4,710 nucleotides of DNA from a virus (lineage: Duplodnaviria > Heunggongvirae > Uroviricota > Caudoviricetes). Shown in pieces: positions 1,883-4,454 of this stretch (the stretch's first letter is position 1; each line of letters starts with the position of its first letter). The notes beneath the pieces were generated by a model. It ran no database searches. It was not told the DNA's origin and saw only the letters and a program-made list of their open reading frames with translations. Made by a program: the position numbers and the translations under genes. The stretch is taken from the IMG/VR virus record IMGVR_UViG_2541047121_000025. One strand, written 5' to 3'.

Positions 1883-2392
1883 ATGAGTAATGACAAAAAA
1901 TTGACACTGAGCGTTTACGAAAACAGTCCGCACATCTGGCGTGGCGGTTTATCTGATGTGGAGCTGGCAGAGTGGTTGATACATAAAGCTAATGCGCTGC
2001 TCTGGCGTTTGTCAGCCAGAGAACAGCGCAAGGAAACCAGAATAAAGCTGGCTGATGCAGAAGCGTGTGCCGGGCTTATTGAGGATTATACAAATCTTGG
2101 TATTTCTTCAGCAGAGAGTGATCCCATTCAGCCTCTGAGCAGGGAGTCAATCCAGCACGCTGGTTGTATGGCACATCTTGTAACTGCTCGTCAACATGAG
2201 GTGGGTATTGGATCACTTCCGGCGGGATATTCGCTGATTCCAGAGCTGGTTGAAGCAAGAAAATCAGTTCAGAAAAAGAGAGATGACGCACTTCAATTAT
2301 TGAGAGAGCACTATGGCGCGATACCAGAATGCGAACAGCGTCGATACCCTGAAGGTTATGAATGGATGCAGTCTCTTTTTGAAGTTCGCTAA
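1883..2392 (+). CDS. Hypothetical protein, 169 aa, no recognised domain; accessory gene between the cII-like and replication genes
   Basis: ATG at 1883 is 14 nt after the ydaT stop (the ORF track extends to 1832 but there is no in-frame ATG before 1883). First-codon-position composition is gene-like (G about 34 percent, T about 17 percent), whereas the overlapping minus-strand ORF has the reverse bias. No strong Shine-Dalgarno. Predicted largely helical. Confidence 0.6.
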   Translation: MSNDKKLTLSVYENSPHIWRGGLSDVELAEWLIHKANALLWRLSAREQRKETRIKLADAEACAGLIEDYTNLGISSAESDPIQPLSRESIQHAGCMAHLVTARQHEVGIGSLPAGYSLIPELVEARKSVQKKRDDALQLLREHYGAIPECEQRRYPEGYEWMQSLFEVR

Positions 2393-2609
2393 TCAATATG
2401 TCGAGACGAAGGTATGTTTCGGCGCGCAGCCAGGCTCTGTAATCCGGGAGCATTTCGGGGCTGTTACACCAGCGGTTTGTTGCTGCAACATTTAATACAT
2501 GAGCCTGATAAAGGCTTTTCAAAAAATACATGTCGAACCTCCTCTGGTTCTGTCGATTGGGAACCACAGATTATATCCGGAGGAAGGTTCGGCACCAGAT
2601 GAGGTAGCC

Positions 2610-3701
2610 ATGCGTGATTACGCAAAAGTTTCTCCGCGATTCTGGCTGGGAGAAACGGGGAGAGAACTTAGAAAGGCGGGTGCAGAAGCGCAAGTTGTTG
2701 CTTTTTACCTGATGACATCCCCTCACGCAAATATGCTGGGTTTGTATTACCTGCCAGTTTTATACCTTGCTCATGAAACCGGGCTTGGTCTGGAAGGGGC
2801 TTCAAAGGGGCTTAAAAGGGCTGTTGAAGCTGGTTTTTGTAGCTATGACCATGATGCAGAGATGGTCTGGGTCCATGAAATGGCAGCCTGGCAGGTTGGG
2901 GAAACGTTGAAGCCTGGCGATAACCGTTGTGCAGGTGTCAGGAATGAGTATGCATCATTACCTGAAAACGCTTTTCTGTCAGTGTTTTACGACAGATATA
3001 AAACGGATTTCCATCTGGATGTGAGGCGGAATAATAGCCGAAATTCGGTAAGGGGCTTCGAAGGGGCTTTTAAGGGGCTTCGAAGCCAAGAACAGGAACA
3101 GGAGCAGGAGAAAGAACAGGAACAGGACAAAAACACTATGGTTCATGGCAAAAAAAACACCACGAACCAGGCAGGGGATGTTCAGACCGTCAATCCTGGT
3201 CAGCCAGCAGGCACGACACCGGAAGCCGATTCGGGCGCTGTGCAGCAGGTGATGACCGCAGGGTCGGAGCAATCACACCAACTGCAGCAGCCTGAAGCCG
3301 ATTCCGCCATTCAGCGGGAAGCCGATCGGGTAGTCCCGGAAAGCACCGGGCAGTCTGTGGGACGAGTGGATTATCCGGATGTGTTCGAACAGGTCTGGCG
3401 GGAATACCCGTTGCGTGCTGGGGCAAACCCGAAGAAATCCGCTTTCAGTGCCTGGAAGGCCAGATTGCGCGAGGGGGTGCCACCAGAGACCATGCTGGAT
3501 GGTGTGAGGCGTTACGCGAGATACCTGGCGGCGACCGGGAAAGCGGGAACGGAATTTGTTCAGCGAGCGACGACGTTTTTTGGGCCGGACCGGAATTTTG
3601 AAAACCCCTGGTTGCTCCCGGTAAGCGGCACGAACAACCAGCGTTGTGTGAATCATATTTCTGAACCGGATACCGAAATTCCGCCGGGATTCAGGGGGTG
3701 A
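2610..3701 (+). CDS. Replication initiator/organiser, lambda O-like or YdaU-like, with internal candidate iterons and an EQ-rich linker
   Basis: GAGG Shine-Dalgarno at 2601-2604 before ATG 2610. The N-terminal segment MRDYAKVSPRFWLGETGRELRK...LGLYYLPVLYLAHETG and the C-terminal segment YPDVFEQVWREYPLRAGANPKKSAFSAWKARL look like phage replication-initiator domains (assigned from memory). An in-frame ATG at 2499 is an alternative start but has no Shine-Dalgarno. The gene is followed within 7 nt by a DnaC-like gene. Confidence 0.8.
   Translation: MRDYAKVSPRFWLGETGRELRKAGAEAQVVAFYLMTSPHANMLGLYYLPVLYLAHETGLGLEGASKGLKRAVEAGFCSYDHDAEMVWVHEMAAWQVGETLKPGDNRCAGVRNEYASLPENAFLSVFYDRYKTDFHLDVRRNNSRNSVRGFEGAFKGLRSQEQEQEQEKEQEQDKNTMVHGKKNTTNQAGDVQTVNPGQPAGTTPEADSGAVQQVMTAGSEQSHQLQQPEADSAIQREADRVVPESTGQSVGRVDYPDVFEQVWREYPLRAGANPKKSAFSAWKARLREGVPPETMLDGVRRYARYLAATGKAGTEFVQRATTFFGPDRNFENPWLLPVSGTNNQRCVNHISEPDTEIPPGFRG
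2781..2823. repeat. Iteron-like cluster 1: GGGGCTT-type motif at 11-bp spacing
   Basis: GGGGCTT at 2796 and 2807, GGGCTG at 2818 and GGGCTT at 2781. The three phased copies fall in three different codon phases of the initiator gene. Confidence 0.45.
3050..3087. repeat. Iteron-like cluster 2: AAGGGGCTT x3 at 11-bp spacing with an embedded 12-bp palindrome GGCTTCGAAGCC; candidate replication origin core
   Basis: GGGGCTT at 3052, 3063 and 3074, again in three different codon phases. The palindrome GGCTTCGAAGCC is at 3076-3087. A purine-rich, A-rich tract follows directly (3088-3160). Confidence 0.45.
3090..3131 (+). repeat. Hexanucleotide tandem repeat (GAACAG-like x7) encoding an EQEQEQEKEQEQDK linker
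   Basis: Read directly: gaacag gaacag gagcag gagaaa gaacag gaacag gacaaa, in frame with the initiator gene. Confidence 0.85.
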
Positions 3702-3707
3702 TGTGGC

Positions 3708-4454
3708 ATGAAAAACATTGCGGCAGCCGGGGTTCTTGAACGTATTCGCAGACTTGCACCACAGGCGTCGGTTCCACCGTACCGGACGGTGGAGGAGTGG
3801 CGGGAATGGCAACTTGCTGAAGGACGAAAACGCAGCGAGGAGATTAACCGCCAGAATCACCAGTTGCGGGTGGAAAAAATCCTGAATCGTTCGGGCATCC
3901 AGCCTCTGCACAGCAAATGCTCGTTTGCGAATTATCAGGTGCAGAACGACGGGCAAAAATACGCGCTGAGCCAGGCCAAATCCATAGCTGACGAACTGAT
4001 GACCGGGTGCACGAATTTTGTGTTCAGCGGTAAAACCGGCACCGGGAAAAATCACCTTGCAGCGGCGATGGGTAACCGGCTGATGGCGAAGGGGCGCAGC
4101 GTGATTATCGTCACCGTGTCTGATGTCATGAGCGTGTTGCATGACAGCTACGACAACGGCAAATCCGGGGAAAAATTTTTACAGGAGCTTTGCAGTGTTG
4201 ATTTGCTGGTCCTGGATGAAATAGGCGTTCAGCGGGAGACGAAAAACGAGCAGGTGGTATTACACCAGATAATTGATCGCCGGACAGCATCACTGTGCAG
4301 TGTCGGGATGTTAACAAACCTGAATCATGCCGCAATGAGTACACTTCTTGGTGAGAGGATTATGGACCGCATGACCATGAACGGTGGTCGATGGGTGACG
4401 TTTAACTGGGATAGCTGGCGTCCAAATGTCAGCAATATGAGGGTTGTGAAGTAA
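3708..4454 (+). CDS. DnaC-like helicase loader (AAA+, IstB/DnaC family; YdaV-like replication protein), 248 aa
   Basis: Walker A GKTGTGKNHLAAAMG at about 4030-4075 and Walker B LLVLDEIG at about 4204-4227. A G-rich Shine-Dalgarno AGGGGG lies upstream of ATG 3708. It directly follows the initiator gene, as the P/DnaC-type gene does in lambdoid replication modules. Confidence 0.9.
   Translation: MKNIAAAGVLERIRRLAPQASVPPYRTVEEWREWQLAEGRKRSEEINRQNHQLRVEKILNRSGIQPLHSKCSFANYQVQNDGQKYALSQAKSIADELMTGCTNFVFSGKTGTGKNHLAAAMGNRLMAKGRSVIIVTVSDVMSVLHDSYDNGKSGEKFLQELCSVDLLVLDEIGVQRETKNEQVVLHQIIDRRTASLCSVGMLTNLNHAAMSTLLGERIMDRMTMNGGRWVTFNWDSWRPNVSNMRVVK

Follow-up and report, generated by a model that had tools for sequence, protein, structure and literature searches.

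Putative Initiator-Binding Repeats inside the Replication Initiator Gene of the Cryptic Prophage CP-933P and Its Homologs

The stretch of DNA analyzed in this study (4710 bp in full and hereafter the window), which comes from the virus record IMGVR_UViG_2541047121_000025, was 100% identical to Escherichia coli O157:H7 chromosomes and is the immunity/replication region of CP-933P, a cryptic lambdoid (Rac-like) prophage. A gene on its plus strand (2610-3701) encodes a protein of 363 amino acid (aa) residues that RefSeq lists as a 'hypothetical protein' (WP_001205823.1). Because its gene lies between ydaS/ydaT and a gene for a DnaC-like helicase loader, and because of these partners, the 363-aa protein is identified as the replication initiator of CP-933P. 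Inside this gene, as the initial annotation had stated, lie two arrays of a short repeat, which are probably binding sites of the initiator itself. The DnaC-like gene follows on the plus strand (3708-4454) and encodes an AAA+ protein that matched the Pfam family IstB_IS21 (3.9e-19) as well as Bac_DnaA. It also matched the NCBIfam model PRK12377 (1.6e-153) and the DnaC equivalog (3.3e-89), the latter under its cut-off.

The initiator is composed of an N-terminal winged-helix domain, a glutamine/glutamate (QE) linker and a C-terminal half with a DnaT-like tail. The N-terminal winged helix-turn-helix domain (aa 1-140; 2610-3029, plus strand) is the specificity module. The C-terminal half (3132-3701, plus strand), which ends with ...IPPGFRG, is an exchangeable module and the presumed part for recruiting the helicase or its loader. 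Residues 1-363 matched phrog_1701 (8.9e-149), labeled 'DnaD-like helicase loader', and the C-terminal half matched phrog_3729 (4e-124), labeled 'replication initiation protein'; both labels are annotations. No Pfam family was found for the whole protein (E up to 0.01) or for the N-terminal domain (E up to 10), including Phage_rep_O (PF04492) and PF09681, and PF17948 was present in some homologs. The match to the DnaT equivalog covered only the last 24 residues and, with 17.8 bits versus a cut-off of 201, was below the threshold.

The AlphaFold model of residues 1-174, with a predicted local distance difference test score (pLDDT) of 84.5, was a winged helix-turn-helix. Its elements were a helix at residues 25-36, a strand at 45-47, helices at 50-57 and 60-73, a wing at 77-88 and then two further helices. 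Residues 141-174 were disordered in the model, and the pLDDT was <50 at residues 145-160. A sequence search with the profile of the N-terminal domain against PDB and Pfam returned nothing, and a fold search returned only the generic winged-helix class. On the basis of the model, a winged-helix DNA-binding fold is confidently predicted for the N-terminal domain. The megablast match between the window and phages with other N-terminal domains began at 3130, which places a mosaic joint at ~3130, and the C-terminal half was ~92% identical at the nucleotide (nt) level to those of initiators bearing unrelated N-terminal domains. The joint holds the N-terminal domain and the two arrays together as a single exchange unit.

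The heptamer GGGGCTT occurred exactly five times in the 4710 bp (2796, 2807, 3052, 3063, and 3074), always on the plus strand. Dinucleotide shuffles gave an expectation of 0.70, and none of 200 shuffles reached five copies. The longer unit AAGGGGCTT (AAGSSSCTT) recovered the identical five sites, beginning at 2794, 2805, 3050, 3061, and 3072, with 0.26 expected. Tandem Repeats Finder reported two arrays with a period of 11, one of 2.5 copies (2794-2820) and one of 3.3 copies (3050-3085), as well as a GAACAG repeat of 6.3 copies at 3090-3127. The unit is a 9-bp quasi-palindrome, with arms AAG and CTT around a core of GGG or CCC and a period of 11 bp. The gene offsets of the five copies are 184, 195, 440, 451, and 462, corresponding to codon phases 1, 0, 2, 1, and 0. 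The claim of the initial annotation that GGGGCTT recurs at exact 11-bp spacing in all three codon phases was thus borne out for five exact copies.

Array 1 (2794-2813, plus strand) consists of two exact AAGGGGCTT units that are 11 bp apart and encode E62-L68 (EGASKGL), residues that make up the N-terminal half of the helix predicted to serve in recognition. A degenerate third unit in phase with them, AAGGGCTGT (2816-2824, plus strand), agrees with the motif at 6/9 positions. Of the three copies first listed for this cluster, those at 2796 and 2807 were exact; the one at 2818 is not GGGGCTT but part of this degenerate unit, whose DNA was not conserved in homologs. Array 2 lies 256 bp farther downstream (3050-3080, plus strand) and is made of three exact AAGGGGCTT units at 11-bp spacing, so that all three copies listed for it (3052, 3063, and 3074) stood. 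It encodes R148-L157, which are predicted to be disordered, and its final unit begins exactly 15 nt before the QE linker. The perfect palindrome reported for this cluster was also present. It is the 12-bp GGCTTCGAAGCC at 3076-3087, formed by the final unit and the conserved junction CGAAGCC. Among homologs, R158 at this junction was encoded by CGA in 17/17 and S159 by AGC in 38/39.

Homologs of the N-terminal half were collected from GenBank phages, IMG/VR and bacterial genomes (~160 loci). The IMG/VR set contained 79 unique loci, and the bacterial set, with one genome per species, contained 79 loci from Gamma- and Betaproteobacteria with a locus GC content of 35-68%. Synonymous sites were compared among 41 non-redundant homologs (<92% identical). 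Array 1 was kept at +184/+195 in ~75 of the 79 viral loci and in most of the 79 bacterial genomes. Its motif codons were GAA in 38/38, GGG in 40/40, GCT in 33/40, AAG in 40/40, GGG in 35/40, and CTT in 37/40. The third position of S65, which is the spacer base of array 1, varied freely among the 41 homologs, and the neighboring conserved Gly, Leu, and Glu codons used every synonym. Synonymous entropy was lowest at the motif codons (mean 0.14 vs. 0.85; 89 conserved columns; Mann-Whitney p = 3e-5). In the loci with a GC content of ≥60% (n = 39), the rare codons GCT and CTT, whose shares elsewhere in the N-terminal domain were 17 and 9%, were retained in 33/39 and 36/39, respectively.

Array 2 of the homologs contained 2-3 units in strict 11-bp phase, the last of which always began exactly 15 nt ahead of the linker. 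Exclusively direct units, with the peptide EGASKGL, were found only in the Enterobacterales types. In most lineages array 2 was inverted to AAGCCCCTT and encoded APSKPL, APSEPL, or APPKPL, and in several loci its units were in mixed orientation (++-, -+-, and --+). The tolerance of either orientation is explained by the quasi-palindromic unit, with its symmetric arms and G3 or C3 core. Array 2 can invert because it encodes a disordered segment; array 1 never inverts because its location, the predicted recognition helix, is structured. In the whole genomes of Fraca (43.7 kb) and of the Acinetobacter phage B1251 (45.4 kb), every copy of the exact motif lay within the initiator gene or adjoined it. 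Because the synonymous sites of array 1 were fixed, the DNA of array 2 was kept despite the change of its peptide and the motif was restricted to the gene, these comparisons, which included >100 related phages, show that selection acts on the DNA of the arrays and not on the encoded peptide. The initial annotation had proposed the same, i.e., that the DNA and not a repeated peptide is conserved, and had named homologs that keep the protein and vary the DNA motif as the observation that would speak against it; the data pointed in the opposite direction. Its remark that two clusters are unusual, on the other hand, did not hold, as two arrays are the norm for this family and are seen again with at least one unrelated type of N-terminal domain.

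Additional units were observed at some loci. The Acinetobacter-type loci (L004:2463-2482, with equivalents in L045, L051, L076, and others) possessed a third unit pair at -38/-27 of the start codon. At L330, a locus of a gammaproteobacterial metagenome-assembled genome, extra 11-bp-phased arrays were located ~650-910 bp upstream of the gene.

The relation between the motif and the N-terminal domain was also followed across subfamilies, which was a check that the initial annotation had called for. The main N-terminal domain and its motif were joined to differing C-terminal halves, the partner being a DnaC-like loader in some cases and a primase-helicase in others, and the motif accompanied this domain across Escherichia, Acinetobacter, Burkholderiales, and Stenotrophomonas, in which the neighboring genes differ. 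A second group of N-terminal domains, family B, was 31% identical to the main family at the amino acid level on the tblastn segment and ~24% identical in alignment A1. In 71 unique loci of family B, AAAGGGTT was confined to exactly the two positions that correspond to the arrays of the main family (+175/+186 and +407/+418). A family B form of the unit is AAAGGGTTT. In this family, the change of the arms from AAG/CTT to AAA/TTT is symmetric, affecting both arms, and the units are read in yet other frames. Moreover, rare variants within the main family were shared by the two arrays of one genome: AAGGGCCTY was the unit in both arrays of L065 and of L300, and AAGGCCCTT was the unit in both arrays of L325 and of L335.

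The initiators of Tritos, 689R5, and Evi share the C-terminal half of the window from 3130 onward with ~92% nucleotide identity, and the hhalign probability between the Tritos-type N-terminal domain and that of the window was 0.2%. Their motif was GTCACG, with four copies within the coding region of the N-terminal domain and five copies directly before a linker of DKDT repeats, at a spacing of 10-11 bp. All copies in 5.6 kb (9/9) fell in the two arrays. The Tritos-type N-terminal domains found in IMG/VR were all 100% identical, and relatives of this type reached a sub-threshold match to PF09681 (E 0.0096; 16.4 bits vs. a cut-off of 23.3). Similarly, YdaU of the Rac prophage has three copies of TGTTCAAACA just before its linker. 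The repeats thus covaried with the DNA-binding domain of the initiator in family B, the Tritos type, Rac YdaU and the variants within single genomes. In these comparisons, motif specificity followed the type of the N-terminal domain and not the C-terminal half, the partner gene or the host. In Tritos, 689R5, and Evi (L170:3137-3559, L171, and L172), the gene after the window-type C-terminal half encodes a DUF977 protein and not a DnaC-like protein. As the DnaC-like gene is not next in these three, their window-type C-terminal half may use the host loader.

The two arrays are probably iterons for the winged-helix domain of the initiator itself and, together with the flanking DNA, would form an origin embedded in its gene. 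This interpretation is founded on the selection at the DNA level, the link of the motif to the N-terminal domain, the confinement of the motif to this gene and the winged-helix fold, and from the sequence data we infer binding, origin firing, a role for array 1 and a site of unwinding. In the proposed mechanism, the N-terminal winged-helix domain would bind both arrays, and the 11-bp period would align neighboring protomers along the same face of the helix. Array 2 would mark the origin where the DNA-binding module meets the linker. Array 1 would be a second docking array that acts by looping, wrapping, or raising the local concentration of the initiator. The bound initiator, with the aid of its C-terminal half and of the DnaC-like protein encoded next to it, would then load the host DnaB at a nearby unwound stretch.

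Several points weigh against an origin at the arrays. The distance between the two arrays was variable and not helically phased in homologs, which renders the looping model loose. Units of 9 bp that recur every 11 bp are also much shorter than the classical iterons of 17-22 bp. Because CP-933P is cryptic, its copy may never fire, and the literature search found no binding or replication experiment for this initiator family. DnaA boxes were not enriched in the window (6 one-mismatch matches vs. 9.9 expected). In addition, the stability profile of the window revealed no clearly AT-rich, easily melted stretch next to the arrays. The tract that follows array 2 is the coding region of the low-complexity linker (QEQEQEQEKEQEQDK; 3087-3131, plus strand), which contains the GAACAG hexamer repeat with the purine-rich strand on top. 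Its stability was -1.28 to -1.37 kcal per step versus a window mean of -1.41 (standard deviation 0.105). It was ~1.2 standard deviations less stable than average and absent from the 12 least-stable 40-bp windows. The synonymous sites of the linker drifted freely in homologs, and the QE linker was swapped for other low-complexity linkers (e.g., GA or GT repeats) in at least 7 homologs.

The initial annotation had described an A-rich, purine-skewed tract with a hexanucleotide repeat after the second cluster and had likened it to the AT-rich region of the lambda origin. The skew and the hexamer repeat were found: the tract at 3080-3180 is strongly skewed for A over T (AT skew 0.6-0.9), and the linker tract is 68% purine with an AT skew of 0.61. 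The tract is not markedly AT-rich, as its GC content is 35-50%, and the linker tracts of homologs averaged 49% AT. The comparison with the AT-rich region of lambda was therefore the weakest part of that description, given that the tract codes for the QE linker, drifts at synonymous sites, is replaceable and is not among the least stable segments. The hexamer tract is mainly the coding sequence of the QE-repeat linker, and lying outside the 12 least-stable 40-bp windows it was not adopted as a demonstrated unwinding element. The least stable stretches of the window were intergenic. Candidates for the unwinding site are the purine-rich linker tract (3088-3135) and a stretch of lower GC content between the two arrays (2940-3020).

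Further observations were made on the linker and the DNA just after it. Dipeptide linkers of GA, GT, KE, or EG type were found in L050, L084, L309, L317, L328, L330, L334, and L335. Most homologs in hosts of 68% GC still keep SQEQEQ, because of which the QE repeat itself seems to be favored. The junction AGCCAAGARCAG and the QE-repeat DNA were common to very distant hosts. An imperfect palindrome, TGGTTCATGGC-A8-CACCACGAACCA (3139-3169), is located just after the linker and, in the window, was not above background. The corresponding inverted repeat of POCJ13 (L003:3007-3035) had 12/13 pairs with a compensatory change from T-A to C-G, and that of Fraca (L005:3019-3036) was a perfect 18-bp palindrome. 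At 12 of 43 loci, the score of the post-linker palindrome was among the highest 10% of the background for that locus, so the feature was recurrent and not universal. In lambda, a palindrome is located to the right of the AT-rich region.

A stronger proposal concerning array 1 is that the codons of the predicted recognition helix are themselves binding sites of the initiator, whereby one mutation would alter both the site and the protein part that reads it. From family A to family B, GAAGGGGCTT became GAAAGGGTTT, and with the arms changing from AAG/CTT to AAA/TTT the same codons changed from EGA..L to ERV..F. We regard this proposal as rather doubtful. If it were true, self-referential coupling of this kind would give the family an inherent path to origins of new specificity, recombination could not separate the protein from its site, and an invertible second array in the disordered linker would follow by gene conversion.

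Conserved intragenic binding sites could also be operators, at which the initiator or another phage regulator autoregulates or blocks the gene while replication begins elsewhere. All of the comparative results fit such sites, no convincing unwinding element was found next to the arrays, and the additional pair of the Acinetobacter-type loci at -38/-27 is at a typical operator position. However, the two complete phage genomes contained no other motif cluster that could serve as the origin of the initiator. The promoter-like matches between the arrays were weak and none overlapped the arrays; a promoter and terminator scan of 2400-3400 gave only weak matches at background level. Moreover, the constant placement where the N-terminal domain joins the linker fits known origins within initiator genes (PMC6022878). 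Regulation instead of replication is thus unlikely. That the arrays are bound by another protein, such as a ParR-type centromere-binding protein, a host factor or the product of the ECs1072-family, DUF1627, or DUF977 gene, is distinctly improbable. Short repeats at 11-bp spacing do resemble type II centromeres, such as parC of R1 with its two blocks of 11-bp repeats, and ParB-like genes were present near some homologs. The window, however, lacks a partition ATPase, and the motif follows the N-terminal domain of the initiator across hosts while the neighbors differ and switches with the type of this domain while the C-terminal half and the context are unchanged.

The mosaic joint at ~3130, just past array 2 and the linker, and the sharing of the AGCCAAGARCAG junction and QE-repeat DNA among very distant hosts would make sense if the conserved DNA were a module-boundary sequence that promotes phage recombination and so shuffles the N- and C-terminal halves of initiators. 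Array 1, however, is not at any joint. The motif also differs among types of N-terminal domain that have the same C-terminal half and thus cannot be a common crossover sequence, and neither the inversions that keep the phase nor the symmetric arm change of family B is expected of such a substrate. We consider a recombination substrate very improbable as the reason for the conservation, although the linker repeat could aid recombination as a side effect; natural recombinant junctions appear to map after the linker. Least credible of all is an origin of the repeats at the level of the peptide, either because EGASKGL is needed twice or because slippage in low-complexity coding DNA produced the repeats incidentally. 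A single frame does read both arrays of the window as EGA(S/F)KGL, and slippage is clearly how the neighboring hexamer repeat evolves. The fixed synonymous sites, the different frames of the units within one array, the APSKPL encoded by inverted arrays and the yet other frames of the family B units nevertheless largely refute a peptide-level repeat.

One of the closest parallels among known systems is the replication origin of lambda. The lambda O protein has an N-terminal DNA-binding domain and a C-terminal P-binding domain with a flexible linker between them, and its gene contains the iterons and the unwinding region (PMC6022878). Similar to what is proposed for the window, the lambda origin is in the initiator gene, with its repeats at the end of the coding region of the DNA-binding domain followed by the linker DNA. 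Also as proposed for the window, the C-terminal half recruits a helicase-loading partner, and the N-terminal domain and its sites are one specificity module. Different from the window, lambda has four 18-bp inverted-repeat iterons, each with an O dimer, and a 39-bp region of high AT content. The window has 9-bp units with an 11-bp period in 2 + 3 copies, which form two arrays 256 bp apart and are found in either orientation, and the partner is a DnaC/IstB-type AAA+ protein instead of P. Membership in the lambda O family (PF04492) was considered and rejected, as the N-terminal domain had no Phage_rep_O match and neither a set of at least four iterons of ~18-19 bp bearing internal dyad symmetry nor a P-type partner was found.

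Plasmid initiators of the RepA_N type from Gram-positive bacteria, such as RepA of pSK41 (PDB 4pta), also have their oriV inside the rep gene. Similar to array 2, the RepA_N iterons are located in rep at the end of the region for the DNA-binding domain and before the linker. The window, in contrast, belongs to a phage of proteobacteria. The length and number of the iterons differ from those of the window, and the comparison of profiles with PDB revealed no sequence relationship between RepA_N and the N-terminal domain of the window. RepA_N initiators are not known to have a second array in recognition-helix codons. G38P of the Bacillus phage SPP1, with oriL, and the replisome organizer of lactococcal phages have an N-terminal origin-binding domain and binding repeats in their own genes, which are followed by the helicase-loader and helicase genes. 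The second origin of SPP1, oriR, is distant, whereas the second array of the window is within the same gene. Membership in the replisome organizer family PF09681 was rejected, as the N-terminal domain of the window had no match to it. For the 11-bp phasing, structural analogies are provided by winged-helix proteins of the PhoB/OmpR type on 11-bp direct repeats and by ParR on parC of R1, which pack head to tail on one face of the helix. The analogy is limited to this phasing, as these proteins function in transcription or partition and are not homologous. A type II partition centromere like parC of R1 was likewise rejected: the window contains no parM/parR-type genes, and the arrays are intragenic.

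The Rac prophage, which has the active origin oriJ (PMC3945230), shares with the window the gene order racR/paaR2, ydaS, ydaT, initiator, and DnaC-like ydaV. Its initiator YdaU is similar to that of the window in the tail ...IPPGFRG, in having a low-complexity linker and in the repeats that immediately precede this linker. It is different in the DUF1376 N-terminal domain, the motif and a single evident array. In ydaU of E. coli K-12 (L254:4120-4977), three palindromic TGTTCAAACA were found within 90 bp upstream of the NKDTDKD linker (L254:4512-4577). Of the seven strand-hits of TGTTCAAACA in 8 kb of Rac, six were in this cluster, with 0.76 expected. These repeats may be the sequence basis of oriJ, whose fine structure was not found in an open-access literature search.

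Initiator-binding repeats inside an initiator gene are of a classical kind and are most likely new for this initiator family. Distinctive features are the 9-bp units with an 11-bp period, the presence of two arrays, one of them in recognition-helix codons, and the free orientation of the array at the linker. No description of an origin or of iterons was found in the literature for this family, and a search with the motif string returned no relevant paper. The paper on Eru replication regions did not mention iterons or origins for these types, and the CP-933P papers (PMC8630535; PMC9986795) did not characterize the origin. In a plasmid collection, no minimal replicon based on this initiator was found, and the only records were chromosomal, prophage-like or misassigned. 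With these results, an initiator family that is unannotated and not covered by Pfam gains a probable origin as well as a code for DNA recognition, in which AAG-SSS-CTT recurs every 11 bp. Its members are widespread among the temperate phages and prophages of Gamma- and Betaproteobacteria; Stx phages from E. coli and Shigella and phages of Acinetobacter baumannii are among them, and the full-length initiator gene was present in ~470 complete E. coli genomes. The simple layout, in which a winged-helix domain is combined with short repeats in phase, a linker of low complexity and an exchangeable C-terminal half, may be used for finding origins and could define replication or incompatibility types in lambdoid prophages without lambda O/P. 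With its orientation flips, symmetric arm changes and paired arrays, the family is also a natural data set for the evolution of initiator-origin specificity. No new principle of replication initiation is revealed.

The rest of the window contains the immunity genes and several others. The genes parE2 (172-459) and paaA2 (459-650) and the gene paaR2 for a CI-like repressor (678-1079) are all on the minus strand and are followed by the genes of Cro-like YdaS (1188-1460) and CII-like YdaT (1444-1869). PaaR2, YdaS, and YdaT of CP-933P have been characterized (PMC8630535; PMC9986795). A gene of the ECs1072 family is located upstream of the initiator gene on the minus strand (2076-2531; RefSeq annotation; NCBIfam 2.1e-30), and a DUF1627 gene comes after the DnaC-like gene. 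Neither RefSeq annotation nor Pfam indicated a gene for a partition ATPase or a ribbon-helix-helix protein in the window. An Rfam scan of the entire window yielded no match, which places the repeats outside the known RNA families. An open reading frame of 169 aa at 1883-2392 (plus strand), which had no family match, overlaps the minus-strand ECs1072-family gene, and likely just one of the two is real. In addition, the two copies of a 77-nt direct repeat (1-77 and 239-315), which are 96% identical, lie on either side of the 3' end of parE2 and its downstream region. Finally, inverted repeats of ACAATAAAAAACTGT at 76-125 and 1116-1154 flank the paaR2-paaA2-parE2 block, where the OL and OR operators of CP-933P would be expected.

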